Positions 12,963-35,883 of a DNA stretch of 64,000 nt are shown piece after piece. The notes under the pieces are model-generated. The model saw only the letters and a program-made list of their open reading frames with translations. It was not told where the DNA came from and ran no database searches. Within the stretch, counting starts at the first letter, position 1. Each line of letters starts with the position of its first letter. The DNA is from a virus. Its lineage: Duplodnaviria; Heunggongvirae; Uroviricota; Caudoviricetes. The stretch lies in the IMG/VR virus record IMGVR_UViG_3300021256_000055, positions 135,124 to 199,123 of that record. One strand, written 5' to 3'. A program made the translations under genes and the position numbers.

Positions 12963-12975
12963 GATTTTTAATTTT

Positions 12976-15550: not shown

Positions 15551-15594
15551 AATAAGCTCCTTCCCTTCCTAGGTATAATATGTCTATGAAGATA

Positions 15595-16322: not shown

Positions 16323-16323
16323 A

Positions 16324-16337: not shown

Positions 16338-16360
16338 TTTATATTAAGAAATTATGAATT

Positions 16361-17114: not shown

Positions 17115-17144
17115 AATAATAGATTAGCGTAGGATAATAAAAAA

Positions 17145-17164
17145 GGACTGCATAGATGCAGTCC
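17145..17164 (-). terminator. rho-independent terminator (ggactgcatagatgcagtcc)
   Basis: 8-bp stem followed by tttttt on the minus strand. Sits 3' of the Nudix gene. Confidence 0.6.
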
Positions 17165-17187
17165 CTTAAATTTATTTTTAAATTATA

Positions 17188-17820
17188 TTACTTTTTATAT
17201 TTTGCTTCAAATTTTGCTTTTGCAAAAGCGGCTTTTTTAGCTTTACTATAATAATCAGCAATCTTTATTTGTTCCTTAAGCGCAGTAAGCTGTTCGTAAC
17301 TTTGCCAAAGAAAAGCGCCCATAACTGAATCATCATCACTTCCAAGATAATCATTTGGGTTATCTACTTCTACAACATTGATAAACTCATTCTCGTCAAG
17401 ATGCTGTTTATCACGCTCACCTGAAACTTCCACCAAAAATCCATTCATATGATTATTCATAAACGCCGGATTTGGACATTTTCTATAAAGCTGTGTAATA
17501 ATTTTTACATCTTTATAACCAGTTTCTTCCTTAACTTCTCTTACACAAGCTTCAGCTGGCGTTTCACCTTCCTCAACTGTTCCCGAAGGAAATTCATAAA
17601 CTTCCTTATTTACGCCATGACGAAACTCTTTTACCATAATAAACTTTTTTGTGTCTTTATTATAAATAAGAGCTGAACACCAATCTGGACATTTTAAAGA
17701 AACAAACTTACCCTGCTTACCCGCTGGATTAGTTTTAACAGTTTCCATAACTGTCCAAATAAATGTTTTTAAAAGTTCTTTTGTTTCACCAATTTTCCAT
17801 TCTGCCATTTTAAGCTCCAT
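17188..17820 (-). CDS. Nudix hydrolase (ADP-ribose/NAD-derivative pyrophosphatase-like)
   Basis: Perfect Nudix box: GTVEEGETPAEACVREVKEETGY (G-x5-E-x7-REVxEExGY). Confidence 0.8.
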   Translation of the reverse strand: MELKMAEWKIGETKELLKTFIWTVMETVKTNPAGKQGKFVSLKCPDWCSALIYNKDTKKFIMVKEFRHGVNKEVYEFPSGTVEEGETPAEACVREVKEETGYKDVKIITQLYRKCPNPAFMNNHMNGFLVEVSGERDKQHLDENEFINVVEVDNPNDYLGSDDDSVMGAFLWQSYEQLTALKEQIKIADYYSKAKKAAFAKAKFEAKYKK

Positions 17821-17821
17821 A

Positions 17822-17834
17822 TTTATAATATGTT
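17822..17834 (-). promoter_or_regulatory. conserved motif instance abutting the Nudix start codon
   Basis: Minus-strand reading is ACATATTATAAAT then ATG. Confidence 0.45.
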
Positions 17835-19362
17835 ATCTAATGTTATAAATGTCTGAATATTTATCTTTCAAATAGTCGATAAAATAATGTGGATTAAAAT
17901 CCTCATCTGTTATATATTTAATCCAGTCAAGGGTATCTCTTAAATCTGGCTCAGCATCAGTAAATACCCAATCTTTCATCCATTTATTTATTTTACTAAA
18001 GTCACATTTTGCTAAATCGCCTTTAATGTCGAGCTCTTCAGTATCTTCCAACATATAATTGTAATACATTGCATTCAACATATTTCCAATTGCATAAGTT
18101 GGAAAATATCCAAAACCACTTGACCAATGCATATCTTGAAGAATTCCTTCTTTATCATTTGGTGGTGTTATACCAAGATAGTCCTTATATTTATCATTCC
18201 AAATTTTTGGCAAATCTTCAATCTTAGCCTGCTTATTAAGAATAAGCTGTTCAATTTCATAGCGGATTATAATATGGAACGTATATGTTAATTCATCTGC
18301 TTCTGTACGAATAAGTGTTGGCTTAACTTCATTAAGCGCTTCATAAAGTTCTTGTGGAGTTACATCATTAAGTACATTAGGAATAATTTCTTTTAATTCA
18401 TCAAAAATACCAAAAATAAACTCTTTTGATGAGCACAAAACATTTTCATAAAATCTTGATACTGATTCATGTTTTGAAAGAGATTTATTATCACAGAACT
18501 TATCATATGCTTCAGGATTTCCATTCTGCATAAAAAGTGCATGGCCACCTTCATGAATACAGGAGTACATACTATACTGAAAAGCAGTTGGATAATAATG
18601 TGTTGTAACACGTGCATCATTCTTTGTCATCTGCTCTGTAAATGGATGCTCAGACTCTGCTAAAAGGCCCTTATTAAAATTAAATCCAATTTTAGAAAGA
18701 ACTAAATTGCTAATCTTTTTTTGTTGTTCAATAGAAACTTCTCTACTAAGGAAATCAGTCCTAATCTTCTTTTTAGAGTTTACAATCTTTTTAAGAAATG
18801 GTACCATTTCTGTTTTGAACTCACCAAACCAGTAATCCAAGTCCTTAGTTGTAATATCCTTTTCGTATTCATAGAATACAGCATCATAAACATTATCAAA
18901 CTTTGGTTTATCTGCCCACTTATCTAACTGTTCAAAAGTTACATCCCTAACCGCGCTTAGAGAATCCTTAAATAAATTAAAATCACTTGCTTGCTTAGCC
19001 TGTTGCCAATCAGAGAAAGCTTTTAAGAAAACCCTACAATGTTTATCAGCCATTTCCGGAGTAATATTTTTGCTTCTACAATAATCTTCATATAGAAGCT
19101 CAATAGTTTTACGAGCATATTTGTCTTTTATAATATGACGATGCTTATAAAAGTAGAGCATAGTTTTAATATATTTTTTATCTTTGAATCTTTTAAAATT
19201 CTGATTACTGATAAAAGCTTCTAATTCGCTATGCTCATCCATAGCGTCTTTTGGACAAATAGTTTCTCTATCAAAAGCCAATAAATTATTTATACTGTTG
19301 TATTTATTTGATTCTTCTAAAAACTTAATCAAATAATCTCTTTTCTTCTGTACGCTACTCAC
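17833..19362 (-). CDS. M32-family carboxypeptidase (carboxypeptidase Taq-like metallopeptidase)
   Basis: HEGGHALF is the HExxH motif. IRTEADELTY and GILQDMHWSSGFGYFPTYAIGNM match M32 signature blocks (IRxEADE; QDxHW...GYFPTY). Confidence 0.75.
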   Translation of the reverse strand: MSSVQKKRDYLIKFLEESNKYNSINNLLAFDRETICPKDAMDEHSELEAFISNQNFKRFKDKKYIKTMLYFYKHRHIIKDKYARKTIELLYEDYCRSKNITPEMADKHCRVFLKAFSDWQQAKQASDFNLFKDSLSAVRDVTFEQLDKWADKPKFDNVYDAVFYEYEKDITTKDLDYWFGEFKTEMVPFLKKIVNSKKKIRTDFLSREVSIEQQKKISNLVLSKIGFNFNKGLLAESEHPFTEQMTKNDARVTTHYYPTAFQYSMYSCIHEGGHALFMQNGNPEAYDKFCDNKSLSKHESVSRFYENVLCSSKEFIFGIFDELKEIIPNVLNDVTPQELYEALNEVKPTLIRTEADELTYTFHIIIRYEIEQLILNKQAKIEDLPKIWNDKYKDYLGITPPNDKEGILQDMHWSSGFGYFPTYAIGNMLNAMYYNYMLEDTEELDIKGDLAKCDFSKINKWMKDWVFTDAEPDLRDTLDWIKYITDEDFNPHYFIDYLKDKYSDIYNIR

Positions 19363-20206
19363 CTAAAATTACCTTCTTAAATACACGATAGTTTGTATCA
19401 TCATCTGGTCTACAATATACCGCAAACTCAATATTTCTAAAACAATGCTTAAACTCTGGCAAAACTGCCTTGTACGCTTTTGCTACAATTACTGGATCAT
19501 TTCTAAATGCACCACATCCAAAAGCGCCAACAATAAGTGTATCACAACCATTATTTGCAGCAACATTAAAAATACGTCGCGCACGTTTAACATGAAGATT
19601 ATACAAATCTTCATCTGAAATTTCAACCTTCTCTACAGCAAGCTCTTCATTATAAGCATTTTTTGGATTTGGCCGCAAATTCGGTGCAGCACAAGTAAGT
19701 ACATCTACTTTCATCCAGTCGTCATTCTGAAGAATATGATAATTATCTTCCTTAAAAATTACAACTCCAGGAGTATAAATAATATCATCATTATGGAGAG
19801 GCCCTAAACTTTCCCTATGCGGAGTATAAAACTTATCAAAACATTCTTTAATATTAAGGCTGTTATAAAGTGTTGAGCATCTACATAAACATTCTTCCTG
19901 TGCTGAAGAACCTTTTGTTACTCCACCACCTGGTGTAGTTGCTGAAGCAAAATTCAATACACATACTTTATTTGAAATATACTCCCTAGCTGCATCAAAA
20001 GAACTTGACTTTGTAACATATATCTTTGATGGTCCCTGGTATTTATCTTCAGCTTTAGGAATTTCTGTATTTTCCAAAATAATCTGTTGATTTTCAGTTG
20101 CTTTTTCTACAGCTTCCTTTAAGTAAGCCGTAGTTTTAATTCTGTCAACAGTATCATTAAAAACTGAAATATTACTTTCTCTTATTGAAAAAGATTTTCC
20201 TGACAT
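19355..20206 (-). CDS. bacterial-type poly(ADP-ribose) glycohydrolase / macro-domain protein (DUF2263/TIGR02452-like)
   Basis: ATTPGGGVTKGSSAQEECLCRCS matches the GGG-x6-8-QEE PARG signature. The downstream Gly-rich segment GAFGCGAF fits a macro fold. Confidence 0.6.
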   Translation of the reverse strand: MSGKSFSIRESNISVFNDTVDRIKTTAYLKEAVEKATENQQIILENTEIPKAEDKYQGPSKIYVTKSSSFDAAREYISNKVCVLNFASATTPGGGVTKGSSAQEECLCRCSTLYNSLNIKECFDKFYTPHRESLGPLHNDDIIYTPGVVIFKEDNYHILQNDDWMKVDVLTCAAPNLRPNPKNAYNEELAVEKVEISDEDLYNLHVKRARRIFNVAANNGCDTLIVGAFGCGAFRNDPVIVAKAYKAVLPEFKHCFRNIEFAVYCRPDDDTNYRVFKKVILGE

Positions 20207-20759
20207 TTTTAGTTTCCTCCAAACTGTACCTTTCTCTTGAAATTAATTTGTTACATTTATAACATTTACTAATTGTGCCATCTCTAGCAATAATAGTTTT
20301 ATGTCTACAACTATTTTTTTTAGAAAAATTAAAAGTTAGATATGGTATCTTACAATCATACATGCTTATACATGCATCTTTGAAATTATTAAACATAACC
20401 CAATATTTTGTTGACATCCAACAATTTGTAAAACCATAACAAGTTGGCGCAGTAAATGCATATAATTTTGCTATTTTCATACCTTTCTTAAGGCTAAATC
20501 TATCTTTATGACATCTACTTATACCAAATCTAATATCCGGCTCCGTAGTCGCGGTGCCTTCTTTAATGATAAAAGCCGCAAATAACATTATTGGCTTGCC
20601 CTTATCATTTGTAATTACACTATAGAGTTCCTTCTTACAAAGGGTATAAAGGCTCTCTCCCATCAGTATAGCTGTATCTGGTAAGCGTCTAATTTCACTT
20701 ACTAGTTCACCTTTCGCAAGTTTTTGATATGTTTCATTAAAATCTATATACTTACCCAT
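20172..20759 (-). CDS. hypothetical protein (195 aa) with C-terminal CxxC pair
   Basis: Intact ORF. C-terminal CYKC and a scattered Cys/His zinc-ribbon-like arrangement. Confidence 0.45.
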   Translation of the reverse strand: MGKYIDFNETYQKLAKGELVSEIRRLPDTAILMGESLYTLCKKELYSVITNDKGKPIMLFAAFIIKEGTATTEPDIRFGISRCHKDRFSLKKGMKIAKLYAFTAPTCYGFTNCWMSTKYWVMFNNFKDACISMYDCKIPYLTFNFSKKNSCRHKTIIARDGTISKCYKCNKLISRERYSLEETKNVRKIFFNKRK

Positions 20760-21336
20760 ATCTATAGATATCCTTTACCTTCAATGCATTACCTTCTGTA
20801 TAGCATTCCATCATATCAAGGTTTCTAAACTGAAATGTTTTACTATTTATTAAATCATACAGCTCTGAATCACCCTTGCCTGTTAGCTTATTATAAAGAT
20901 ACCTTACGAAAAGGCCATGTGTTACACAAATAATTGCTTCATCTTCTTTTAATTCCATCCCTAAAATTTTTAATATTAAAGCTGATACTTGTTTATCAAA
21001 TGTATCTAGGTCTGGATGACAAATTTCATCAAATTCCTCTTTTGAAATTTCCCAGAATTTTTTATTTCCAAGAGAAGAGCAATCAAGTTCTTTTAATAGG
21101 TCTGTTTCAGTAACAAATTGTGGATCAACTAAAAATAAATTTTTGGCGGTTGAATGACACCTTACAGTTGGCGATACCCAAATTTTAAGAGTACTACATT
21201 CAATATTATTACCTACTTTTTTCCACCAGTCCATAGCATCAAAGGGTTCAATGTCATACTGGTCATAATTTTCTTTCATTTCACCTGAAAGATTTGCTGC
21301 TGTAGGCGCATGCCTAATAAAATATACTTTAGCCAT
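20752..21336 (-). CDS. histidine phosphatase superfamily (phosphoglycerate-mutase-like) protein
   Basis: N-terminal FIRHAPTAAN is an RHG-type motif. A second His lies in CVTHGLFVRYL. Confidence 0.5.
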   Translation of the reverse strand: MAKVYFIRHAPTAANLSGEMKENYDQYDIEPFDAMDWWKKVGNNIECSTLKIWVSPTVRCHSTAKNLFLVDPQFVTETDLLKELDCSSLGNKKFWEISKEEFDEICHPDLDTFDKQVSALILKILGMELKEDEAIICVTHGLFVRYLYNKLTGKGDSELYDLINSKTFQFRNLDMMECYTEGNALKVKDIYRYG

Positions 21337-21361
21337 AATAATTTTCCTATAATAATAAAAT

Positions 21362-21387
21362 AGCCTCAGATTTGATAATCCGAGGCT
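21362..21387 (-). terminator. rho-independent terminator (agcctcagatttgataatccgaggct)
   Basis: 8-bp stem plus T-rich tail on the minus strand. Confidence 0.5.
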
Positions 21388-21393
21388 TTCTTA

Positions 21394-21843
21394 TTAAACC
21401 TTCTTTTTTATTTGAGGTGTATCCTCATAAAGGTAAAGTGTTCCTTCATCCTTATAAGAAATAATCTTAGTATCTGAAGTTTCATAACCAAAAATCAATG
21501 GTAATAAATCCTCACATGCATAAAACTCGGTATAGGCCTGAACATTATCCAAAGGATAAAGCCATAAGGCATACTTGAAATTTTTTCCTTTTGCCTTATT
21601 TAAGTTACTAATAAGGCCTTTAACATAGTCTTTCTGCTTTTCATTCTCCGCAGAAAAGGCTAGTTTTTTATAAAGTCTAAACTGACTTAGCTTTTCTTCT
21701 TTTGTATGGTATACACTAAGAAGATTTTTTACAAGCCTATCATTTTCACGATCAAAAATTTCATACATCAAGACTCTATCAATATCCGATGTGTGGTCCT
21801 TTGAAAGTTCATTTGTTCGATACAATACCATCTTATTCTCCAT
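21394..21843 (-). CDS. hypothetical protein (149 aa)
   Basis: Intact ORF. Conserved motif upstream. Confidence 0.5.
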   Translation of the reverse strand: MENKMVLYRTNELSKDHTSDIDRVLMYEIFDRENDRLVKNLLSVYHTKEEKLSQFRLYKKLAFSAENEKQKDYVKGLISNLNKAKGKNFKYALWLYPLDNVQAYTEFYACEDLLPLIFGYETSDTKIISYKDEGTLYLYEDTPQIKKKV

Positions 21844-21847
21844 GCAA

Positions 21848-21862
21848 TTATAATATGTAAAT
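21848..21862 (-). promoter_or_regulatory. conserved motif instance (ttataatatgtaaat)
   Basis: 4 nt upstream of the minus-strand ATG at 21843. Confidence 0.45.
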
Positions 21863-21876
21863 AATTGACATAAAGA

Positions 21877-22185
21877 CTAGTTATTCATCGGAATATTTTC
21901 AGGTTTATTATTAATTTCCCAAGCATAAGTAGCGATAGCTTTTAATACCTCACTATCACCCGCGTCATATCTGAAAAGACCTTTTCTGGTAGCTACAAAA
22001 TAATCTACACCAAATTGCTTTGCTGCTTGTTCAACTGCATTTACAAAAGCTTCTTCTTTAGAAATAACTTCTGTTCCTGATTCTTCAGGCTTAACATAAT
22101 TTTCAAAGCTGTTATCAACTTCGATTTTAGCGTCCATATTTCCCATTGATGATTCTCCTAATTCTCGTATACTATAATTACGCAT
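21877..22185 (-). CDS. hypothetical protein (102 aa)
   Basis: Intact ORF. Confidence 0.45.
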   Translation of the reverse strand: MRNYSIRELGESSMGNMDAKIEVDNSFENYVKPEESGTEVISKEEAFVNAVEQAAKQFGVDYFVATRKGLFRYDAGDSEVLKAIATYAWEINNKPENIPMNN

Positions 22186-22553
22186 TCCTGCTTAGAATCA
22201 TATGTAAAACAAGAAACTTTTTTATTACCTATATTTTCTTTTATAAGCTTAATTACCGATTCGCCACTACCACCTTTAGTGAAGGACCAATCATGAAATC
22301 TAACTGATATAACTTTTTGACTAGTAGGCTTAGAAGTATCATACATAACAAGTAAGCATTCTTGTTCAGAGTCATATGAAATAACTTCAATATAACCCTT
22401 ACTTAAAAAGTTACGAATTTCTTTTGCAACGGTTTCACCACTACCCGCTTTAGTAAAAGACCAATCACGAATACGTACTGATGCATACCTCTGTTCTGCA
22501 AATACAAAACTACTAACAAATAAAATAATAAGAATACTTAGAAATTTTTTCAT
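22158..22553 (-). CDS. secreted protein with internal tandem duplication (131 aa)
   Basis: Signal peptide. Two about 50-aa repeats: VRIRDWSFTKAGSGETVAKEI...YDSEQECLLVMYD and VRFHDWSFTKGGSGESVIKLI...YDSKQECVIIVYE. Confidence 0.5.
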   Translation of the reverse strand: MKKFLSILIILFVSSFVFAEQRYASVRIRDWSFTKAGSGETVAKEIRNFLSKGYIEVISYDSEQECLLVMYDTSKPTSQKVISVRFHDWSFTKGGSGESVIKLIKENIGNKKVSCFTYDSKQECVIIVYEN

Positions 22554-22555
22554 TT

Positions 22556-23374
22556 TTATCCTCTTAATCCTGCAATATTTATTTGATAAATATGCCCTTC
22601 ACATATTAAATATGCCTGATGATATTTTGTTTCTACCTCAGGAGCTTTAGAATAAATTGTACGTGGTCCACTTTTATAGATAGGCTCTCTACCGTCACTT
22701 ATCATATCATCTCGACCGAAATCTAATGCTACCTGAGCTTCTTCCTGATATTTTTGCTCTTGAAGTTTAATATCTTCTTCAGTTAATTTATCTCGTTTCT
22801 CTTCAGGAATTTCAATATAAGTGTTTTCAAACCTATCAGAATCTACCCTATGTATAACAATTCTTGAATGTGTTAATGGAGGTTCCACAGTACCTACCTC
22901 ATAAGGTGGCTCATATTGTTTTTTAGAAATCCTAAAATTTGGATATAGTTTTATATAGGCAGTAATTGAGGGATCACAATACATTTCAGCTGTTTTATTA
23001 AGACCAATCATAGAAAAAAGACTATCAAGTACTCTTATAGACTGCGCAAAATAAGACTGTACACCTGATCCTTTAACAAGTTCTTTTTCTATAAAAATCT
23101 GTTCACCCTTTTGAGCTTCAAAAACCTTTTTAAGAGTCATAAAGCCTATTTCATATTCTGCCTTTTGTTTATAACTCGCAATGGTATTTTTTATCATGTC
23201 TTCGGGAAGCTTAGTATCTTTAAGTTCTGCTTCCAATTTTTCGTCCCACTGCTTGTTAGACTTAATAATGTGCTTTTTTGTAGTTTCTGAAATAAGATGC
23301 TTATAAAAAGCCTCATACTCAATTTTAGCGGTAGATAAAGTATCATCTACCGTTGTATGTTTTAATATTTCCAC
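22556..23374 (-). CDS. hypothetical protein (272 aa)
   Basis: Intact ORF. Confidence 0.5.
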   Translation of the reverse strand: MEILKHTTVDDTLSTAKIEYEAFYKHLISETTKKHIIKSNKQWDEKLEAELKDTKLPEDMIKNTIASYKQKAEYEIGFMTLKKVFEAQKGEQIFIEKELVKGSGVQSYFAQSIRVLDSLFSMIGLNKTAEMYCDPSITAYIKLYPNFRISKKQYEPPYEVGTVEPPLTHSRIVIHRVDSDRFENTYIEIPEEKRDKLTEEDIKLQEQKYQEEAQVALDFGRDDMISDGREPIYKSGPRTIYSKAPEVETKYHQAYLICEGHIYQINIAGLRG

Positions 23375-23437
23375 TATATCTCCTACGAAATGCCTCTTTA
23401 GTAAAAATACTTAAGGTCTTTTTCTCTTAAAAAATTT

Positions 23438-24226
23438 TTACCAAAGATTTTCAATATAGAAAGGCAAATCTGGATGATAATAGTCAATATTGATATATCT
23501 GCGCTTCCACTTATTACGCTTTATGATACCAACAATATTTTCATTATGATTTCCAACTTTACCAATGCGAATAAATGCATCAAGTTCCTCATAAGAGAAT
23601 CCAAGCTTATCCTCATCTGACTTATATGACCCATCCTCATTTACGGACATACCATCAATTGGAGTTTTATTATAAAGTTTTTCTGGAAGTCCAAGATACT
23701 TTGCAATAGCGCGAACTTCTGTTTTTGTAAATCTTGCAATTGGAGCAAATGCGCCAGTAGAGTCTCCCCAAACTGTATCATATCCACAAGCAGTTTCAGA
23801 AGCGTTACATGTATTTGCAGGATAAGCATTTCCCATCAAAGCAGCAATACCATAAATTGTAGTCATACGAATACGTGCAGGCGTATTTGTACTATACTGG
23901 TCTGATACTTTGCCTTTTGTTTCTTCAAGAATTGTATCAGTTAACTTTTTATAGGCTTCACCAATATTTACTTCAAGGCTCTTAATACCAAGAGCGTCAC
24001 AAGCTGCCTTAGCGTCATCAATATCTTTCTGTTCACCACATGGGAGACGAACCCCAATAACTTTATCAGCGCCAAGTGCTTCTACACAAAGCTTTCCAGT
24101 AGTAGTTGAATCAACACCTCCTGAAATACCAAGTACAACTTTTGCATCTGGGCCCTTATCAGCAAACCAGCTACGAATCCAAGCAATACAGCTTTCCGTC
24201 TCTTTCTTTACATCAAACTTATACAT
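23438..24226 (-). CDS. nadE: NH3-dependent NAD+ synthetase
   Basis: PP-loop GISGGVDSTT. Length of 262 aa and overall layout are typical of NadE. Confidence 0.8.
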   Translation of the reverse strand: MYKFDVKKETESCIAWIRSWFADKGPDAKVVLGISGGVDSTTTGKLCVEALGADKVIGVRLPCGEQKDIDDAKAACDALGIKSLEVNIGEAYKKLTDTILEETKGKVSDQYSTNTPARIRMTTIYGIAALMGNAYPANTCNASETACGYDTVWGDSTGAFAPIARFTKTEVRAIAKYLGLPEKLYNKTPIDGMSVNEDGSYKSDEDKLGFSYEELDAFIRIGKVGNHNENIVGIIKRNKWKRRYINIDYYHPDLPFYIENLW

Positions 24227-24268: not shown

Positions 24269-26146
24269 TTACCAAAGTTCCTTTGTTTCAGGCTTTATAT
24301 TTTCATCCCAATATGCACCTGTAAAGGTTTCTTCATAATCTACGCCTTTTCTATTTTTCGCAAAATATATATCCATTTCTTCGTAGCCGTGCTCGCCTTT
24401 ATCATCTTTCTGATTAGCTGCCTTTACTACATGATAACCAAATTTATACATAATTTTAAGAAATGCAATATAATATTTATACTTAAAGCTTCTTTTAGGA
24501 GAATAACCATCAAATCTCCAAGAACCATTATAATTCTCTATCTTAACATGAATTTTAATACATTTATGATTTTCATAAACTTCATTACTGATATCCAAAT
24601 GGCCCCGTAATATTGATTCTTTACTTACGCCTTCAATATTGGCAAATGTATTTTCTATCTTAGACAAATCAGAAATTCTAATACCATCTACTAATTCTTT
24701 CCAAATAAAATAATCTCTAGCATAATGTTCTTTCTTTTTTTGGTCATCTTCCAGATATCTCAAATAGTAATCATGGTCATGATCACTAGGCACTATTACA
24801 TAATTATCTACTGGGAATACTATAGTATTCATACAGCTATGTATACTTGTACTATGCCAATAACCATCCTTAATTGCATATCTTAGCCAGCTATCTCTTA
24901 ATGCAGTTGTTTCTAATTCGGATATATCTGTATCTTTCTTAACAATATAATTCTTACTAGAATCTAAGTCAATATCAAGATAATCCTCACGATCACCAAT
25001 TTGTGGATGATAACTTTTTGCAAAGATTTTTCCTTTATTTACATCTTGACCATTTACCATAAGTACTTCTGGACGAATAAAATAACTATCTTTACTTCTA
25101 AGATTACCTGTTAAAATTTTAGTAGCTGATTCAATCAAATCCTTCGGAAGTTTACTAAAAGACTTAATAGAATCAATAATGGCTGACATTGTATTATCAA
25201 AATCTTTATATAAATCTTTTACCTCTGTATTATATATTGGAGAATACTCTAACCCAGCGTTTTTAAAAGCTTTAGTTACTCTTGCTTTTAACGATTCTTT
25301 TCCTACAAGGCCATTCTCAATAATATATTGCTTTTCTATAGCATAAGATGAGTCGTCAAGGCACAAGAACCTATCAAAATATCCCTTACTGACTACATCT
25401 GCGAAACTTACATTTACAAGTGTTCCATCAAGATTATAATTCTTTTTAGTATCATATAATGGTATTAAATCAATAATTCCCTTTGCTGTTAAGCTTTTCT
25501 TAAACTCACCAAAATATCTTTTTTCATGAAAGTCCTTACTCTCTACCCAACCACGGCCCATATAATTACAGCCCGACTTGTGATATCCACCAATTTGGTT
25601 AAACCAAACTTCTGCCGTAATTTTTGCTAAGAGCTCATTTGGTGCCTCAACTAATAAAACTACTTTGCCTGTCTTTCCATGGTCCTTTCCATAAGAATCA
25701 CCAAAATCAACATCCGCGTTATAAACTTCACCATCCATCCAATCAGTCATTCTGCTAATAGCGCTGAATAAATATTGCTTCTGTGCTCTATGACGACTCT
25801 GCATTAAATCAGTATACTCTTCATAAGAAAGCTCTTTTTTATATTTAGGAAATTTATAACTTTCAAGATAATTAATATAATTTTCCCCAAAAAACTCTTT
25901 TTGAGTAAGTGGGTAAAATAAGCTATAAGTGCTATGATGTGATCTAGTTTTTGTAACATTTTCAAAAGGATTATGCTTATAATTTTTATTTGTTTTCAAT
26001 TCCCCAAATGCTTTTTCTTCTCTTTTCTCTACATAGCCCTTGAGTGTTACAATATCATCTGCAAAAATACCTGTCTTTAAGCCTTTTGCATCTTTTATAT
26101 GAAGAGCATTAATTACTTTTGATTCATCAAATTTTAATTTTTCCAT
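24269..26146 (-). CDS. large hypothetical protein (625 aa)
   Basis: Intact ORF. No motif I can assign. A His/Asp-rich patch VPSDHDHDYY is present. Confidence 0.55.
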   Translation of the reverse strand: MEKLKFDESKVINALHIKDAKGLKTGIFADDIVTLKGYVEKREEKAFGELKTNKNYKHNPFENVTKTRSHHSTYSLFYPLTQKEFFGENYINYLESYKFPKYKKELSYEEYTDLMQSRHRAQKQYLFSAISRMTDWMDGEVYNADVDFGDSYGKDHGKTGKVVLLVEAPNELLAKITAEVWFNQIGGYHKSGCNYMGRGWVESKDFHEKRYFGEFKKSLTAKGIIDLIPLYDTKKNYNLDGTLVNVSFADVVSKGYFDRFLCLDDSSYAIEKQYIIENGLVGKESLKARVTKAFKNAGLEYSPIYNTEVKDLYKDFDNTMSAIIDSIKSFSKLPKDLIESATKILTGNLRSKDSYFIRPEVLMVNGQDVNKGKIFAKSYHPQIGDREDYLDIDLDSSKNYIVKKDTDISELETTALRDSWLRYAIKDGYWHSTSIHSCMNTIVFPVDNYVIVPSDHDHDYYLRYLEDDQKKKEHYARDYFIWKELVDGIRISDLSKIENTFANIEGVSKESILRGHLDISNEVYENHKCIKIHVKIENYNGSWRFDGYSPKRSFKYKYYIAFLKIMYKFGYHVVKAANQKDDKGEHGYEEMDIYFAKNRKGVDYEETFTGAYWDENIKPETKELW

Positions 26147-26859: not shown

Positions 26860-26906
26860 ATATAGCTCCTTTTAATATAATATATAAATAATTCTATAAA
26901 AGTATA

Positions 26907-26929
26907 AAGCCGAGCAAAATACTCGGCTT
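26907..26929 (-). terminator. rho-independent terminator (aagccgagcaaaatactcggctt)
   Basis: 8-bp stem, T/A-rich flanks. Sits 3' of the purA-like gene. Confidence 0.5.
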
Positions 26930-26934
26930 TTATA

Positions 26935-28038
26935 TCAAAGTTCCTTTGTATCATAAAAATTTATTGGATGCATTAAAAATGTGTTTCTAAACTCATCTGT
27001 TCTGTCCATTTCATCACAGTGTGTGACTTCCATTATATAAGGCAGTTTCTTATGAGTAATCCTTCTAATCTCCTTATCACATCTTTCTTTTAATTCTGTG
27101 ATAGAAAGAGGAGAATAATAAAAATCGCGCTGCCACTCATTATATTGATTTATTTCTACTGAATTATCTATCAACTTTGGTAGCTCTATATCATTAACCC
27201 ATTCTCTAGATCCATGACGAGTCAAATATGGTCTTGTAACAAAATGAATTATTGGTTTCTTTTCAATATTACCATATAATGTGCGAATACCTGTCTCAGA
27301 TGGTGTTTTTTCAATATTATCAGTGCCATCATCATTTAAGAGCAAACCTTGCCCATTTTCAATAATAACATGCTTTTTTTCGCTAACACTTATGCTATCG
27401 CGAACCATACATGATAAAAACATATTCTCACAATCACTTATAAAGTGATTAATTGTTCCATCACTAAACCATGCGTCATAATATTCATTTGTTACATTTA
27501 CTTTTTCAATTTTACCAAAATAAAAGTCCCTAATAATAAGAAGATATTTTATTTTTTCATCTAAGCTTCTTGTACAAAATTCTGAAAATGGTATAGAATA
27601 ACCACATTCGTAACGCTTAATAGTCTCCCATATGCCCATTCCACAAGAGCCTGTCCATCTTTCCTTTTGATGTATTTGATTCACCATCATATCCCATGGT
27701 GTAGACCACATACACGCTTCATTCCTAGAAGTTTTAGGGTAAAATCCATAAGTATGGTATATTTCATCTTTTTCTTTTACAAACTGCATAGGATTAAGAA
27801 TATATTTAGGACCAAAATAAGACTCTACCGAAAGAGGAGTTGCAGATCCGAAATGCTTAAAAATATGTTCTTTTCCATTTACGCTTACAGAGTGGCCTCT
27901 CTGAGCGCCACCATTGTTTAGTATAACAATTGTATTATCATAATCATTATAGGCTTTTGCAATGCGCGCAGTTATAATTCCTTTTCCTTCGTCGCCCGCA
28001 CCACTTCCAATAACAATATCTAAGCTTTTCTTATCCAT
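26935..28038 (-). CDS. adenylosuccinate synthetase family protein, short form (PurA/PurZ-like, 367 aa)
   Basis: The P-loop VIGSGAGDEGKGII corresponds to GDEGKGK. NGGAQRGHSV corresponds to the GGxNAGH His motif. ENGQGLLLNDDGTDN corresponds to QGxLLDxDxGTYP. It is about 60 aa shorter than canonical PurA. Confidence 0.7.
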   Translation of the reverse strand: MDKKSLDIVIGSGAGDEGKGIITARIAKAYNDYDNTIVILNNGGAQRGHSVSVNGKEHIFKHFGSATPLSVESYFGPKYILNPMQFVKEKDEIYHTYGFYPKTSRNEACMWSTPWDMMVNQIHQKERWTGSCGMGIWETIKRYECGYSIPFSEFCTRSLDEKIKYLLIIRDFYFGKIEKVNVTNEYYDAWFSDGTINHFISDCENMFLSCMVRDSISVSEKKHVIIENGQGLLLNDDGTDNIEKTPSETGIRTLYGNIEKKPIIHFVTRPYLTRHGSREWVNDIELPKLIDNSVEINQYNEWQRDFYYSPLSITELKERCDKEIRRITHKKLPYIMEVTHCDEMDRTDEFRNTFLMHPINFYDTKEL

Positions 28039-28067: not shown

Positions 28068-28079
28068 ATAAAAAAATAA

Positions 28080-28104
28080 GAGCATAGCTTTTTAGCTATG
28101 CTCT
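28080..28104 (-). terminator. rho-independent terminator (gagcatagctttttagctatgctc)
   Basis: 9-bp stem followed on the minus strand by ttatttttttat. Confidence 0.6.
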
Positions 28105-28129
28105 TTAATTCAATTAAAGATAATATAAC

Positions 28130-28474
28130 CTACCAAGTAATTACGCCTGATTCAGTATTAACCTCAGTATATGTTTTATTAAAAGTATCCTTTTTAACTG
28201 GATAAACTGACCCATCAATTCCCTTTACAAAATAATCACCATCCTGAATCGGCGACAGAATAGGCTGTCTACCAGCATTATAAGTATCACATGAAAAAGT
28301 AATTCTTGGATAATCATAGGATTTATAGCCCTTATTTAACTCATCCTCAAATACGGGTATAATATCAACATCCCTACACATTTTTTCTAGGTCTGGCCAC
28401 CATTCGCTACGATTAAAAAATGTACATTGAACAGCTTCAACCTCTAAAGGACGCTTTTTATATTTCTTTACCAT
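28130..28474 (-). CDS. hypothetical protein (114 aa)
   Basis: Intact ORF. Confidence 0.45.
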   Translation of the reverse strand: MVKKYKKRPLEVEAVQCTFFNRSEWWPDLEKMCRDVDIIPVFEDELNKGYKSYDYPRITFSCDTYNAGRQPILSPIQDGDYFVKGIDGSVYPVKKDTFNKTYTEVNTESGVITW

Positions 28475-28800
28475 GTAATTCCTTCCTCATCCATTCTATA
28501 TCTTTTCTTAAAAGCCTCATCTGTCATAGAATTAATTTCACCATTTGAATGGATTAAAAGCCATTCTGTAGAATACAAACAAAACTCTGTATTTTCCAAA
28601 ACTACAATTATACGAATTTTATCTGTATACATTTTATCTGTTGGGTTATAAAAATCAATCCTATGTGGAACTCCATTAAGGAATTCTTCTAAAGAAGCTA
28701 AAATTTCTTTAGCTTCTTTTTCAGTATGAAAAACAGGTATTTGTATAGCTCTAGCACTATCTGGCCTTACTATATAAAAACCTTGTTTCATTTCTACCAT
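28468..28800 (-). CDS. hypothetical protein (110 aa)
   Basis: Intact ORF with overlapping start and stop. Confidence 0.45.
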   Translation of the reverse strand: MVEMKQGFYIVRPDSARAIQIPVFHTEKEAKEILASLEEFLNGVPHRIDFYNPTDKMYTDKIRIIVVLENTEFCLYSTEWLLIHSNGEINSMTDEAFKKRYRMDEEGITW

Positions 28801-29705
28801 ACAATCGCACCTGTTTCATCATGCTTTACGGTATTATCAGCCTTCTCAGCAAGATGCTCTTTATTCTTATAACTACGTTCAATAAGTTTTACAATATTGT
28901 TCTTCAAACTATCAACTGAAGAAACAATATAATTATCATCGCCAATTACTGACTTAAATGACTTATCAACGCGCTCTTCATATGAGTCACCATCACCCTC
29001 ATAATTTGTACGATGGTCCTGAACAGTAATATGGTAAATATCAAACTTCTTTGATGCAGCTTTATAAAGCTTATCTGTATCAAATACATATTCTGTATTT
29101 TTACCAGAATCTGTTTTTTCGCCAAGGAAATCAAATACTTCCCTTTCATGGAGTCTTGGATTCAAAGGTTCATCACCCATTGTAATAATAATGCCTTTTC
29201 TTCCCTGCTTATCATAACAATCTAGCTTAGTTCTGTAAAGACCAAACCACCATGGTGCTGTATAACTTTCATACCCATTACCACCACCACCTTTTTCAAG
29301 CCAAACCTGGTCCATTTGTTTAGCAACACGAACATCTGATTCGAACTGTGAAACCTGAAGCGGTGCATCATCACACTCAAAGTCACCGACGCCCATTACC
29401 ATGACCTCAACATCCTTAAACTTCTCATAAAGGTCTTTCATCAAAGCTGAAATTGAAGCAGCACACTCATCGCATGCTGAGCCCATAGAACCAGTAACAT
29501 CCAGGGCAAGAATTACAGGAACTGTATTTGGATGCTCTTTTGAATTACAGCACTCCCTAATTTTTCCTTTTGCATTCAATTCTCTTGAAATTGACCTAGC
29601 ATTAAAAGTATGCCCTGAAACACGATGTGTTGATGTATCATAAACTGTACCAACTGATTTTGAATAACTCGCAAATGAGCTTACACTATAGCTTCCGCCA
29701 CCCAT
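28794..29705 (-). CDS. von Willebrand factor A (vWA) domain protein, TerY-like
   Basis: VILALDVTGSMG is the MIDAS D-x-[ST]-x-S motif. Downstream ITMGDEP is vWA-like. Confidence 0.6.
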   Translation of the reverse strand: MGGGSYSVSSFASYSKSVGTVYDTSTHRVSGHTFNARSISRELNAKGKIRECCNSKEHPNTVPVILALDVTGSMGSACDECAASISALMKDLYEKFKDVEVMVMGVGDFECDDAPLQVSQFESDVRVAKQMDQVWLEKGGGGNGYESYTAPWWFGLYRTKLDCYDKQGRKGIIITMGDEPLNPRLHEREVFDFLGEKTDSGKNTEYVFDTDKLYKAASKKFDIYHITVQDHRTNYEGDGDSYEERVDKSFKSVIGDDNYIVSSVDSLKNNIVKLIERSYKNKEHLAEKADNTVKHDETGAIVW

Positions 29706-29766: not shown

Positions 29767-30672
29767 TTAGGCTTTCTTTTCTGCGGCTTCAAGAGCTGCA
29801 AGTTCTGCCTTAAGACGTGCTTTCTTTTCTTCTGGAGTTTCATCCTCAACAGCTGTTGTTGGGTCGAAATCTGCTTCTTCAAAGTCGAAATCGAACATTT
29901 CAGAAAGGTCCATATCTCCGTCTTTGCCACCAAGCATATTGCTCATCATCATCATTCCGAGCATACTATTTGCATCACCGTTACCAGCACTAAAGCCGTC
30001 ACCGCCCATAAATGATTTGAGCATATTCATTTTAAACATCATACCCATCATTCCACTGATGCCCTTTCCCTTCTTAAGGAAGTTGTTACTACCAAACATA
30101 GAAACAATCTTGCGGTAGAAGAACATCTGTCCCATGAAGAAATGACGCTCTGGTACAATTTCCTGGATTGCACTATTTTCGTAATCCATTACCTTAATTG
30201 TCTTATTTGCATTATTTTCAATAACACACTTTGGTTTACCATCAATCAAAAGGATATCACCTGTCTTTGCCTTTGTAGTTGGAACTACAAAGAAAAATTC
30301 CTGGCCAATGTCAAAACAGAACTGTGTTACATTTGTAAGACGACCAGTCTTTACATCATATGTTTTGTATCCATTTGAAGTTTTAACAGCCATCTGACCA
30401 TTAAGGCCAAGACGACACATACCCTTACCAAGGCGGCTAAACATGTCACCAAACATTCCATTCATTGCACTATCTAAACTCATCTCTTCTTCCTCCTGAG
30501 ATTCTAAATAACTATCTAAAACTGATTTTGAATGGTCGCTTATATTTATACCACAAGCTTCTAAACTGGAAAGTGCAGCACTTATACCAGGTGAGTGAAA
30601 CATATCACTCCATGCATTTAAGCTTGATCTTAAGCCATCCAATTTATATAAGTCATAATTTGCAATACTCAT
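29767..30672 (-). CDS. Met/Gly-rich hypothetical protein (301 aa) with acidic C-terminal tail
   Basis: The C-terminal third contains GMMGMMFKMNM...MLGMMMMSNMLGG low-complexity Met-rich tracts followed by a Glu/Ala-rich helix. Confidence 0.5.
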   Translation of the reverse strand: MSIANYDLYKLDGLRSSLNAWSDMFHSPGISAALSSLEACGINISDHSKSVLDSYLESQEEEEMSLDSAMNGMFGDMFSRLGKGMCRLGLNGQMAVKTSNGYKTYDVKTGRLTNVTQFCFDIGQEFFFVVPTTKAKTGDILLIDGKPKCVIENNANKTIKVMDYENSAIQEIVPERHFFMGQMFFYRKIVSMFGSNNFLKKGKGISGMMGMMFKMNMLKSFMGGDGFSAGNGDANSMLGMMMMSNMLGGKDGDMDLSEMFDFDFEEADFDPTTAVEDETPEEKKARLKAELAALEAAEKKA

Positions 30673-31565: not shown

Positions 31566-32393
31566 TTAGTTGCTAGAACGCATATCAATGATTGTAGAGG
31601 TTCCATCTCCACCAGCTACCGTTGGCAAATGTCCATCCCACTTTTTAATCTTTTCAAATTCAACAAGTTCCTTTGTTAAAGATGCTGATACAATTTTATT
31701 ATATTCCGCAATACCACGAGCTGCCTCAATTTGCTTATCCGCTTCAGCTTTTGCTTCAAGAACTTCATTTTCACGCTGTTGGGCTTTCTGCTTAGCAGCA
31801 ACTTTAGCATTAAGTGCTTCCAAAACCTGCTCAGGTGGACGTGGAGCACCAATCCAATAAACACCATTAATAATAATTTCTGGAGCAAAGTAATTTTTTA
31901 CTTCTTTGTAAACTGTCTCCATAAGTTCAGTCTTACCATCAGAAATAATCTGGTCAGCGGAATATGTAGAGCCATAACGTGTCAATGCATCTCGCACTTT
32001 CTGACGAATAGCAATATCCGCAATATCTTGTGGAGTTTTACGATATTTACTATAAATTTTAGCTACTGATCCTGGCTCACCACTAAAACTATAATCCATA
32101 CCAATATCAGCTACAATTTCAAGACCTTCATTTGACTGAAACCTTAAGGCCTCATCAGTCTTTGAATTCTCTCGCGAATCCTCCGTCCAAACTGCATACT
32201 GTACAAAGTTTGGATATGCCAGATGCTGTTTATTGATAGTATCTAAATAGTATCCAGGAGGAACTTCTTCAATAGATCCCTTCTCATCACCAAGCAGTGA
32301 AACCTTAAGGCCAGTATAGCCATTTTCAATTTTAGTACAGCTTGTAAAAATAACTGTTACTAAAAACAAAGCAAATAACAAAAATTTTTTCAT
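31566..32393 (-). CDS. SPFH/band-7 (prohibitin/HflC-like) domain lipoprotein
   Basis: Lipobox LFLVTVIFTSC. The SPFH-like core and a C-terminal Ala/Glu/Lys helix (EALNAKVAAKQKAQQRENEVLEAKAEADKQIEAARGIAEYNKI) are typical of band-7 proteins. Confidence 0.6.
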   Translation of the reverse strand: MKKFLLFALFLVTVIFTSCTKIENGYTGLKVSLLGDEKGSIEEVPPGYYLDTINKQHLAYPNFVQYAVWTEDSRENSKTDEALRFQSNEGLEIVADIGMDYSFSGEPGSVAKIYSKYRKTPQDIADIAIRQKVRDALTRYGSTYSADQIISDGKTELMETVYKEVKNYFAPEIIINGVYWIGAPRPPEQVLEALNAKVAAKQKAQQRENEVLEAKAEADKQIEAARGIAEYNKIVSASLTKELVEFEKIKKWDGHLPTVAGGDGTSTIIDMRSSN

Positions 32394-34359: not shown

Positions 34360-35817
34360 TTATAAAATATATTTTTCGTTAGATTTTACAATTTCTACAT
34401 TTTTATATCCCGCTTCTGCTAATTCTTTTTTTAGATAAGCCTGACTATCTGGTTCACCATGAACTAAAAATATTTTCTTTAAGCGGCTAGTATCAATTGA
34501 ATTAAGCCAATCAATTTCTTCTTTATAATCCGCATGTGCAGAGAATGCATTTATTTTTTCGATATTAGCTTTAACACTAAAAAGGCTGTTTAAGATTGTG
34601 ACTTCTTTTTCTCCATCAAGAAGTTTTCTTCCTAATGTATTCTCTGCCATAAATCCAACGATTAAAACAGTATTTTTTGGGTCTTCAATATTTGCTGCTA
34701 AGTGGTGAGTAATTCTTCCAGCTTCACACATACCATCTGCAGCAATAATAATACATGGGTCTTTCTTTTTGTCAAGTTTCATTGAATCTTGATTAGATGC
34801 TACAAAAGTTAACTTATCAAATTGGAAAGGACTTTTATGTTTATCTAAGAAATCATCATAAATACCATGATCATAGCATTCTGGATGAACTCTAAATATA
34901 CCCGTCGCATTTGTCGCCATTGGTGAATCTACATAAACTGGAAGTTTAGGAATTTTTTTATCTCTTAAAAGGAGATTAAGATAGTAAATTATTTCCTGAG
35001 TTCTTTCAATAGCAAAAGATGGAATTAAAACTTTTCCACCTTTATCTGCTGTTTCTTTAATTATTTTAGCAAAATGTTCTAATGCTACATCTCTTCCTTC
35101 ATGTCGTCTATTACCATATGTAGATTCCATATAAATATAATCTGGCGCGTCAACATTAGTATCTGGCTTTTTAATAATTGGTTTCTCAGGACGGCCTAAG
35201 TCGCCAGTATATAGTACTCTAATTTCTTTAGAAGATTCACCCTTATTAAATAACTTATCTAATATTCCAGGTTCTTCTTTAACATATAGTTCTACCATAG
35301 ATGAGCCAAGAATATGACCCGCATCAAAAAGTTGAACATCACAATTCTTAAAAAGATTAGTTTTAGTATGATATGGAATAGTTACCATTTTACAAGCTGT
35401 ATTTACACAATCATCTTCATTGTATAATGGCTGTAAAACTGTCTTTCCTATCTTATCACCTTTACGTCTTGCAGCTGCAAGATAAGTTTGATAGTCTTGA
35501 TATTGGATTTTTGCTGAGTCCATCATTACAAGATTTGCTAAATCTCTTGTAGCTGATGTTGAATAGATTGATTTTTTATAACCGTTTTTAATTAAAAGTG
35601 GTAATAATGCACAATGGTCGGCGTGTGCATGCGTTAAGATAACTGATTCCAAGTTTGAAGTATCAACATTAAAGTCTCTATTTTTTTCATCAGATTCTTT
35701 TCGTTTTCCTTGAAATAGTCCACAATCAATTTGGACAAGTTTACCGTTAATGTCCAAAAAGTGTCTAGAACCTGTAACTTCTTCACAAGCTCCTTGACTG
35801 AATGCTACAATTTTCAA
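34360..35817 (-). CDS. metallo-beta-lactamase fold beta-CASP nuclease (RNase J/CPSF-like)
   Basis: VILTHAHADHCALLP is the HxHxDH motif. Length and C-terminal layout are consistent with beta-CASP/RMMBL. Confidence 0.7.
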   Translation of the reverse strand: MKIVAFSQGACEEVTGSRHFLDINGKLVQIDCGLFQGKRKESDEKNRDFNVDTSNLESVILTHAHADHCALLPLLIKNGYKKSIYSTSATRDLANLVMMDSAKIQYQDYQTYLAAARRKGDKIGKTVLQPLYNEDDCVNTACKMVTIPYHTKTNLFKNCDVQLFDAGHILGSSMVELYVKEEPGILDKLFNKGESSKEIRVLYTGDLGRPEKPIIKKPDTNVDAPDYIYMESTYGNRRHEGRDVALEHFAKIIKETADKGGKVLIPSFAIERTQEIIYYLNLLLRDKKIPKLPVYVDSPMATNATGIFRVHPECYDHGIYDDFLDKHKSPFQFDKLTFVASNQDSMKLDKKKDPCIIIAADGMCEAGRITHHLAANIEDPKNTVLIVGFMAENTLGRKLLDGEKEVTILNSLFSVKANIEKINAFSAHADYKEEIDWLNSIDTSRLKKIFLVHGEPDSQAYLKKELAEAGYKNVEIVKSNEKYIL

Positions 35818-35842
35818 TAATATTCTCCTATATAAATATAAA

Positions 35843-35868
35843 TTAACCCAAGATAAAACTTGGGTTAA
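35843..35868 (-). terminator. hairpin (ttaacccaagataaaacttgggttaa)
   Basis: 8-bp stem. The AT-rich tail is only moderately T-rich. Confidence 0.4.
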
Positions 35869-35883
35869 TTCATTTATTAGTTT

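Follow-up and report, generated by a model that had tools for sequence, protein, structure and literature searches.

Adenylosuccinate synthetase (PurA) joins inosine monophosphate (IMP) to L-aspartate with the use of GTP, and PurB then yields AMP. Two sets of shortened homologs are also close to the gene reported here. The archaeal short PurAs (e.g., Pyrococcus horikoshii PH0438; structures 2d7u and 5k7x; NCBIfam model NF003295) are about 340 amino acids (aa) long as a result of deletions, keep Asp13, and are bona fide aspartate-using enzymes. The phage-borne PurZ and PurZ0 (structures 6FM1, 7ODX, and 7VF6; NF038379) lack the contact of Arg303 with the ribose 2'-OH, and all 147 phage PurZ/PurZ0 proteins (i.e., 100%) carry Ser at the position of Asp13 (PMC12884076). 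We analyzed a 64,000-nucleotide stretch of DNA from a virus of the Caudoviricetes (positions 135,124 to 199,123 of IMG/VR record IMGVR_UViG_3300021256_000055; here called the window), in which a 367-aa PurA-like protein is encoded at 26935..28038 on the minus strand. This protein belongs to a third clade of the superfamily, neither housekeeping PurA nor PurZ/PurZ0, and its gene is accompanied by that of a vWA partner, which is near-obligate and lies directly upstream in essentially every locus of the clade.

In the Helicobacter pylori adenylosuccinate synthetase, IMP is contacted by Arg135', Asn37, Thr121, Thr230, Val264, and Arg294, GDP is contacted by Lys322, Asp324, and Ser400-402, and the Asp-binding loop comprises residues 289-294 (PMC11276676); these roles can be transferred to the corresponding residues by numbering. 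Arg303 touches both the 2'-OH of IMP and the aspartate, which is also touched by the tip of the Thr-rich loop (PMC8342488). In PurA, GTP binding and phosphoryl transfer involve the P-loop, Lys16, and Asp333; deprotonation and protonation of the 6-oxopurine involve Asp13, His41, and Gln224; and the 5'-phosphate is bound by Thr239 and by Arg143 of the other subunit. Mutagenesis by Fromm, Honzatko, and coworkers reportedly identified Arg131, Arg303, Arg305, Thr300/301, and Val273 as the residues that determine how L-aspartate is recognized. The PurA-like gene and the landmarks of its product are as follows.

26935..28038, minus strand: PurA-like enzyme, 367 aa, third clade of the adenylosuccinate-synthetase superfamily (ATG-start open reading frame [ORF], Pfam, AlphaFold2, and tree)
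27979..27996, minus strand: P-loop G15-D16-E17-G18-K19-G20, in which the Asp equivalent to E. coli Asp13 is retained (translation and column counts)
27892..27912, minus strand: GGAQRGH, with the catalytic His49 (E. coli His41) kept and Gln46 in place of the IMP-contacting Asn38 (hhalign)
27214..27222, minus strand: T273-R274-H275 (TRHG), with an invariant His in place of PurA Val273, a ribose/IMP contact (hhalign, TRHG against TRVG)
27118..27141, minus strand: aspartate-loop remnant NEWQRDFY, against E. coli NEFGATTGRRRR (hhalign and direct comparison)
27013..27024, minus strand: T339-H340-C341-D342, the counterpart of PurA TKLD, with the guanine-specifying Asp333 kept (hhalign)

The product is an intact and well-folded member of the superfamily. 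The ORF listing returned the coordinates and length given in a preliminary description of this DNA, with an ATG start on the minus strand, and the three motifs noted there are present in the translation: GDEGKG (residues 15-20), GGAQRGH (residues 43-49), and a QG-LL-D-GT block (ENGQGLLLNDDGTD; residues 227-240). The homology to PurA proposed at that stage lies far above chance. Pfam PF00709 matched residues 8-277 (E = 5.8e-14; 52.1 bits; cutoff, 27), PHROG 1211, a family named "2-aminooxy adenylosuccinate synthetase," matched with an E value of 5e-24, and the family profile aligned with E. coli PurA over 316 columns in hhalign (probability, 97%). The AlphaFold2 model, for which 114 homologs served as input, reached a pLDDT of 91.2 and a pTM of 0.91, and its top 41 Foldseek matches in the PDB (i.e., all of the significant ones) were PurA, PurZ0, or PurZ structures, the best being E. 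coli PurA 1cg1 (E = 6.5e-18; TM score, 0.71). The protein is shorter than cellular PurA, as had been pointed out (367 aa against 432 aa in E. coli), owing to the absence of about 90 C-terminal residues, including Ser414-Gly416, and a 4-residue deletion in the aspartate loop. Public annotations of its homologs read adenylosuccinate synthetase.

All of the PurA equivalog models scored far below their cutoffs: TIGR00184 gave 39.3 bits (cutoff, 402), NF002223 gave 35.1 bits (395.6), NF010355 gave 31.1 bits (445), NF010357 gave 16.2 bits (700), and the archaeal NF003295 gave 26.6 bits (368) in an alignment that covered residues 6-92. Identity to E. coli PurA was about 22% over the N-terminal 240 residues (overall, about 17 to 22%), and the archaeal short PurAs ranked below the bacterial PurAs in the fold comparison. 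We placed the family in a neighbor-joining tree of 61 sequences (360 trimmed columns; 100 bootstraps), which comprised 48 family members, 7 cellular PurAs (one of them archaeal), 3 PurZ, 2 PurZ0, and 1 Ser-type bacterial homolog. The family was monophyletic in 100 of the 100 bootstraps, and a split of the family together with PurA from PurZ/PurZ0 was recovered in 91. PurA is the nearest clade in the tree; the branch of the family is long and lies beside or within the seven sampled PurAs (monophyly of PurA without the family, 46/100), and its exact branching point is uncertain given the simple tree method and the thin reference sampling. The preliminary description had considered that the protein might cluster firmly within housekeeping PurA, and what emerged is a separate, long-branched clade. 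This placement agrees with an earlier phylogeny, where some 330 of the phage PF00709 proteins fell outside PurZ and, save for a handful, outside cellular PurA (PMC12884076).

The preliminary description had also raised the option of a PurZ-like protein, i.e., an enzyme that joins dGMP and aspartate into N6-succino-2-amino-dAMP and marks a 2-aminoadenine (Z) genome. Short length, the PHROG family name, and the loss of Arg303, likewise a PurZ trait, speak for this option, which we nevertheless regard as close to refuted. The P-loop keeps Asp (GDEGKG) as in PurA, whereas the PurZ proteins of phages phiVC8, S-2L, and SH-Ab 15497 read GSTGKG and the two PurZ0 proteins read GSEAKG, and the motif census, which covered 192 distinct family ORFs of phage and cellular origin, contained no PurZ-type P-loop (GS..KG). 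In the published data, Asp or Ser at this one position discriminates fully between the classes. The PurZ model NF038379 scored 11.1 bits (cutoff, 300) and aligned with residues 7-63 only; the family profile matched phiVC8 PurZ in hhalign with a probability of 57% over just 49 columns; PurZ/PurZ0 structures came last among the superfamily matches in the Foldseek ranking, behind every bacterial, eukaryotic, and archaeal PurA; and basal family members matched E. coli PurA with a BLAST E value of 1e-27 and PurZ with one of 1e-4. The phylogeny of PurA, PurZ, and PurZ0 references, a check that had been named beforehand, told against the option as well (91/100). The PurZ references keep a Thr-rich aspartate loop with paired Arg (TT.T..RR), which the clade has lost. 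PurZ further differs from the PurA-like protein in its use of ATP/dATP, with an NF motif replacing TKLD, and the PurZ/PurZ0 genes are linked to DatZ, MazZ, DpoZ, DutZ, or DmtZ. The reported absence of DatZ and MazZ from the window was upheld in a tblastn search with phiVC8 and S-2L proteins, which also returned no DpoZ or PrimPol in the 64 kb (best E, 0.12), and none of DatZ, MazZ/DUF550, DpoZ, or DutZ/DmtZ was conserved near the PurA-like gene in 83 viral loci. Moreover, the clade is present in bacterial chromosomes.

A PurA homolog on the Sinorhizobium meliloti BL225C megaplasmid pSINMEB01 (L256:2398-4041) does carry Ser where PurA has Asp13 (GAQFGSEGKG). It has retained an aspartate loop (GTVSGKKRR), has a fused N-terminal P-loop kinase-like domain, groups with PurZ/PurZ0 in the tree (91/100), and is possibly a cellular relative of PurZ.

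The active site of the PurA-like clade was assessed with column counts over 258 sequences, hhalign alignment to E. coli PurA, direct sequence inspection, and the motif census. Asp13, Lys16, His41, Glu221, Gln224, Arg143, Thr239, and Asp333 are retained nearly invariantly. GDEGKG, H49, Q230, and R142 (i.e., the P-loop, His41, Gln224, and the intersubunit Arg143) are conserved in 253 to 258 of the 258 sequences, the P-loop Asp in all of them; at the motif level, GD[EA]GKG occurs in 189 of the 192 ORFs and GGxQx[GA]H in 182. T339, H340, and D342 are invariant in the family alignment (A1). In other positions the clade departs from PurA. Asn38 is replaced with Gln (Gln46 here) in 257 of the 258 sequences, Thr129 with Cys (Cys132 here) in 236, and Val273 with His in all 258 (T[RK]HG, 192/192 ORFs), while Met takes the place of Arg131 in 170, Arg being outside the five commonest residues at that position. 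The aspartate loop, NEFGATTGRRRRTGWLD in E. coli, reads NE-x-Q-G-x-hydrophobic-(R/K)-x-G-x-LD in the family; it is 4 residues shorter and lacks Thr300, Thr301, Arg303, and Arg305. None of the 192 ORFs has TTG[RK], and 189 have the short NxxQ loop. The free-aspartate pocket is also more hydrophobic (Met, Trp, and Phe).

On the basis of these residues, we infer that GTP-to-O6 phosphoryl transfer on a hypoxanthine-type nucleoside monophosphate is conserved and that the enzyme no longer has the canonical pocket for free L-aspartate. The first half-reaction would probably be the one known from PurA, namely, GTP-dependent 6-O-phosphorylation of a 6-oxopurine nucleoside monophosphate.

Unlike PurA, which has no such companion, the PurA-like protein has a near-constant vWA partner, and a further gene (p301) usually lies upstream of it.

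28794..29705, minus strand: vWA partner, 303 aa, with the metal ion-dependent adhesion site (MIDAS) D69-x-T71-G-S73 ... T175-x-G-D178
29694..29705, minus strand: N terminus of the partner, M-G-G-G (M1, G2, and G4 invariant in alignment A2)
29767..30672, minus strand: p301-family protein, with an N-terminal extension of about 65 aa in this copy (conservation profile and linkage)

The partner is predicted to adopt a vWA (integrin I-domain-like) fold, which structure prediction alone revealed; searches of the PDB, Pfam, and NCBIfam returned no significant family at the sequence level. The VWA domain of NorD and BchD are among its fold matches. The MIDAS residues D69-V-T71-G-S73, T175, and D178, a predicted metal site, are invariant in 56 partner sequences. 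The N terminus reads MGxG in 159 of 173 distinct sequences, 152 of which have an aromatic residue at position 6; the motif extends to divergent copies such as those of Rhizobium (MGGGRF), Vibrio (MGGATW), Rhodococcus (MGYGKW), and phage Sebata (MGSGAW; internal start).

In Rhizobium phage RHph_TM3_3_6 (E = 1e-39), Vibrio phage Va1 (E = 5e-49), Mycobacterium phage Sebata (E = 3e-28), and a 592-kb contig (60% identity), as well as on a linear megaplasmid of Rhodococcus opacus, the gene that immediately precedes the PurA-like one encodes a homolog of the 303-aa partner. The partner is present in 80 of the 83 loci that encode the PurA-like protein. When the search was seeded from the partner, all three genes were found in 76 of 78 new IMG/VR loci, and in the two exceptions the sequence ends less than 50 bases from the partner gene. 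When a single genome of each prokaryotic species was scanned, the partner was found in all 73 loci that had enough sequence upstream. The genes invariably follow one another as p301, vWA, and PurA-like, on one strand, with a usual gap of -6 to +20 nucleotides between the vWA and PurA-like genes, and p301 lies upstream of the vWA gene in 71 to 72 of 83, 76 of 78, and 58 of 80 loci. Beyond the three, no gene family was conserved within 5 kb on either side of the PurA-like gene in the 83 loci; a survey of the same flanks found no conserved AAA+ gene. The vWA and PurA-like pair of R. opacus plasmid pRho-VOC14-L (L255:1905-4257) is 43 to 44% identical to that of cluster C mycobacteriophages, a likeness which suggests that plasmids and phages of actinobacteria have exchanged such genes.

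Proteins of the p301 family are typically about 200 aa long (301 aa in this copy). Their beta-rich core is strongly conserved; they also have a low-complexity segment rich in Met and Gly, and their tail (MFDFD...E) is acidic. Searches against Pfam, PHROG, NCBIfam, and PADLOC gave sub-threshold similarities only, and no homolog was detected in the R. opacus plasmid or in the Rhizobium, Vibrio, and Mycobacterium phages. Since MIDAS sites bind carboxylates, the acidic tail of p301 may be the MIDAS ligand of the vWA partner.

In this window, the vWA and PurA-like genes are set apart by insertions.

28468..28800, minus strand: 110-aa ORF between the vWA and PurA-like genes, lineage specific and outside the conserved module (no family matches)
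28130..28474, minus strand: 114-aa ORF between the vWA and PurA-like genes (PHROG match, phrog_419/1810/4502)
28078..28105, minus strand: terminator-like hairpin with a 12-bp stem and a T-run, between the inserted ORFs and the PurA-like gene
26906..26930, minus strand: terminator-like hairpin directly after the stop codon of the PurA-like gene

A homolog of the 114-aa ORF occurs between the same two genes in a 45%-identical relative (L004, 9237-9551), where a 136-aa ORF stands between it and the PurA-like gene, and the family of this ORF was seen in 11 related loci as a recurrent small insertion of the subclade. A promoter scan gave 28 matches, no more than the 28.1 expected from shuffled sequence.

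An exhaustive search yielded 469 representatives of the PurA-like family (50%-identity clusters) at an E value of 1e-30 or lower and 2,605 at 1e-10 or lower; the weaker representatives probably include true PurA. The carriers are large phages (contigs of 150 to 420 kb) and cellular replicons, and among the 220 GenBank phage matches, 202 are cluster C mycobacteriophages. The pair or the triad occurs in large phages of Bacteroidota-type gut and rumen communities, in Rhizobium, Vibrio, and Mycobacterium phages, a Rhodococcus megaplasmid, and Lachnospiraceae/Ruminococcus chromosomes. PurA-like and vWA proteins identical to those of the window are encoded on a 203,783-bp ENA contig and on a 940,564-bp record, the latter above the size of typical phage genomes.

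In Lachnospiraceae AC2031, the triad lies on a 3.19-Mb contig, with an OmpR-type two-component system on one side and, on the other, the genes for a 1,297-aa STAND NTPase and an NrtR-type Nudix-winged helix-turn-helix protein. A prophage origin of this copy was ruled out, as its neighbors (the two-component system, a pyridoxal phosphate decarboxylase, the STAND NTPase, and NrtR) include no phage genes. The STAND/AAA_16 NTPase gene (L212:7301-11194) stands between the PurA-like and NrtR-like genes at this locus only, and in the related NE2001 locus NrtR directly follows the PurA-like gene; the insertion suggests that the triad sits in a variable, conflict-type island. An NrtR-like gene accompanies the triad on the same strand in 45 Firmicutes loci, directly flanking it in about two-thirds of them and lying 1 to 5 kb away in the others. 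Regulators of the NrtR type are responsive to ADP-ribose and govern NAD genes. In the Rhizobium phage, NMNAT/NUDIX and phosphoribosyltransferase genes are near the PurA-like gene, and in the window it lies about 3 to 12 kb from NadE, NMNAT-like, PncA-like, NUDIX, and PARG genes.

14621-15232, minus strand: isochorismatase/PncA-like protein
15595-16152, minus strand: NMNAT-like cytidylyltransferase
17188-17820, minus strand: NUDIX protein
17833-19362, minus strand: M32 carboxypeptidase
19355-20206, minus strand: microbial PARG
20752-21336, minus strand: histidine phosphatase
23438-24226, minus strand: NadE

No PncB is recognizable in this NAD/ADP-ribose block (14621-24226), and the 625-aa ORF at 24269-26146 had no family matches. 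Among the 83 viral loci, NadE was found in the flanks of 11, NMNAT-, PncA-, and NUDIX-like genes in 3 to 5, and TerD near the PurA-like gene in 1. An NAD/Ter block as the conserved context was therefore rejected. NAD/ADP-ribose genes are recurrent but facultative neighbors. The preliminary description had proposed, as its second option, a PurA-like C-N ligase recruited to an NAD/Ter metabolite module. The altered ligase fits, given the intact catalytic machinery and the rebuilt aspartate site, and the NAD/ADP-ribose link, though loosely supported, does recur (Rhizobium phage and Firmicutes NrtR); the module itself, however, is the vWA and p301 genes, and the Ter part did not hold. Five tandem TerD-domain paralogs are present in the window at 9279-14162 on the minus strand (Pfam E values, 1e-49 to 1e-73), with a rhomboid-domain protein before them.

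Gut jumbo phages are already known to carry NAD-synthesis clusters (PMC11662467). The presence of NAD genes near the PurA-like gene here, and of NMNAT/NUDIX or NrtR elsewhere, resembles the NARP1-3 and pncB-nadD-nadE clusters (PMC11662467 and PMC13464706). The PurA-like/vWA/p301 triad has been described as a component of none of the NARP pathways and is conserved independently of NAD genes, and it is mentioned neither among the gut jumbo-phage NAD clusters (PMC11662467) nor in a survey of viral NAD/ADP-ribose functions (PMC9503650).

The function that we propose, for which we see about an even chance, is that of a GTP-dependent enzyme that aminates a 6-oxopurine nucleotide with an amine other than canonically bound L-aspartate, acting with its partners in a role linked to NAD/ADP-ribose. 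The enzyme would work as a dimer and use GTP to phosphorylate O6 of an IMP-like nucleoside monophosphate (IMP or dIMP) without a 2-amino group. An amine other than canonically bound free L-aspartate would then displace the 6-phosphate, giving an N6-substituted adenine nucleotide or AMP. The PurA-like enzyme would act in complex with the vWA partner, the MIDAS site of which plausibly holds the acidic tail of p301, and the N-terminal glycine of the partner is a candidate to enter the rebuilt amine pocket. The repeated, if facultative, occurrence of NAD-salvage, Nudix, PARG, and NrtR genes nearby suggests a product tied to adenine-nucleotide/NAD/ADP-ribose metabolism, into which it might feed, or in which it might signal, during phage-host conflict.

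Several points weigh against this proposal. One basic residue (R/K) survives in the shortened aspartate loop, and the main subclade has gained Arg47 beside His49, so the amine may bear a carboxylate and might even be aspartate in a new pose. The residue mapping rests on alignments and the AlphaFold2 model, and the tree is a neighbor-joining one with few references. Three partner sequences start with MSKG, the N-terminal Gly motif may be structural, and the partners may be regulators or scaffolds unrelated to the choice of substrate. The association with NAD genes is facultative (NadE, 11/83 loci). Finally, the hairpin at 28078..28105 separates the PurA-like gene from the vWA gene here, and tight coexpression is thus not guaranteed in this window.

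Among the rival explanations, an ordinary auxiliary metabolic gene is possible but rather unlikely. The protein would then be a divergent, functional adenylosuccinate synthetase (IMP, L-aspartate, and GTP) whose product host PurB turns into AMP, and both an AT-rich genome and the neighboring NAD-synthesis enzymes would be better supplied with adenine nucleotides. Such a role would suit the PurA fold, the full conservation of phosphoryl-transfer and catalytic residues, the position of the family nearer PurA than PurZ, the G+C content of the window (31%) together with its ATP-consuming NAD enzymes, and the names given in public annotations. It is at odds with the clade-wide loss or replacement of aspartate loop 298-303 (Thr300/301 and Arg303), Arg305, Arg131, and Val273 (TTG[RK], 0/192) and with the score of 39 bits against a 402-bit equivalog cutoff. 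GC-rich carriers exist too (mycobacteriophages, Rhodococcus, and Rhizobium), the obligate vWA partner stays unexplained, and carrier bacteria such as the Lachnospiraceae presumably have a purA of their own. We hold counter-defense to be clearly less probable. In that case, the enzyme would reaminate (d)IMP produced by host defenses that deaminate adenine nucleotides (RADAR or Kongming type), restoring the adenylate pool or removing the precursor of a dITP signal, beside genes that restore NAD. The kept Asp13 implies a hypoxanthine-type substrate, the loss of Arg303 (the 2'-OH contact) is compatible with deoxy-IMP, and the Kongming effector depletes NAD+ while the window has NAD-salvage genes. 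Yet the Dmp phosphatase is the only reported anti-Kongming factor, a PurA homolog goes unmentioned in the searchable literature, and there were no PADLOC or anti-defense matches (PADLOC was run on the PurA-like protein, both partners, and seven neighbors). Nor would counter-defense explain the vWA and p301 partners or the NrtR-flanked chromosomal triads, and the amine problem persists.

A nucleotide-gated switch, similarly improbable in our estimation, would make the protein a dimerizing SIMIBI-type GTPase in which the binding of IMP and GTP controls the assembly or activity of a vWA-p301 complex, the reaction perhaps halting at 6-phosphoryl-IMP. The locus does resemble RavA-ViaA, NorQ-NorD, BchI-BchD, and MoxR-vWA in that the gene for a P-loop NTP-binding protein adjoins that for a vWA protein with a complete MIDAS, NorD VWA is among the fold matches of the partner, the amine site is dismantled, and the coupling with the partner gene is tight. 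The NTPases of the known pairs, however, are AAA+ (MoxR) ATPases that remodel or insert metals, whereas here the protein is of the PurA fold, SIMIBI class, with intact purine-activating residues; the invariance of Asp13, His41, and Gln224 across very divergent lineages argues that full catalysis is under selection. A more specific form of the amination proposal, which we also consider improbable, has IMP or dIMP activated as its 6-phosphoryl form and joined to the alpha-amine of the N-terminal Gly of the vWA partner, after removal of Met. Such protein-nucleotide conjugation is compatible with the dismantled, more hydrophobic aspartate pocket, with a partner gene that is near-obligate and often translationally coupled, and with the maintenance of M-G-x-G-(S/T)-aromatic from 25%-identical mycobacteriophage copies to gut-phage copies. 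If true, the partner N terminus would be N6-linked to an adenine nucleotide, a previously unknown protein-nucleotide conjugation derived from purine-biosynthesis chemistry.

The enzyme superfamily is already known, and the annotations of homologs (PurA or "2-aminooxy adenylosuccinate synthetase") are often misleading. Searches returned no account of the triad in the searchable literature, nor one of a clade set apart from both PurA and PurZ, of the residues that mark it, of its vWA and p301 partners, or of the NrtR-adjacent chromosomal copies. Phage genes labeled "adenylosuccinate synthetase," "PurA-like," or "2-aminooxy adenylosuccinate synthetase" are now read as purine-salvage helpers or as markers of Z genomes. 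A large share appears to be neither, including those of all cluster C mycobacteriophages (about 200 genomes), the large Rhizobium and Vibrio phages, and hundreds of gut and rumen jumbo-phage contigs. Simple sequence rules (i.e., GD[EA]GKG, T[RK]HG, a short NxxQ loop, and an upstream vWA gene whose product starts with MGxG) would avert false Z-genome calls in metagenomic screens with PF00709 or PHROG 1211. The two- to three-gene module, common to phages and to bacterial chromosomes and plasmids, pairs apparently intact purine-activating chemistry with a rebuilt amine site and opens a directly testable route to what may be a new nucleotide product or modification in phage-host conflict. Carriers that can be cultured include the cluster C phages of Mycobacterium smegmatis, Vibrio phage Va1, R. 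opacus, and Lachnospiraceae isolates.

All genes in the half of the window that holds the PurA-like gene are on the minus strand. No tRNA genes were found in the window, and 20 kb of it had no DNA-level relatives among 50,697 phage records (megablast). The window also encodes a Band_7/SPFH protein (31566-32393) and, at 34360-37794 on the minus strand, a beta-CASP/RMMBL nuclease of the metallo-beta-lactamase fold (485 aa) adjoining a 636-aa C5 DNA methylase (Pfam labels). A 659-aa protein at 2376-4355 (minus strand) has the N- and C-terminal domains of beta-ketoacyl synthase (E = 1e-19 and 3e-24), which is unusual in a phage. At 43718-60733 on the minus strand, one ORF runs without interruption for 5,671 aa, which is a very great length in a phage.

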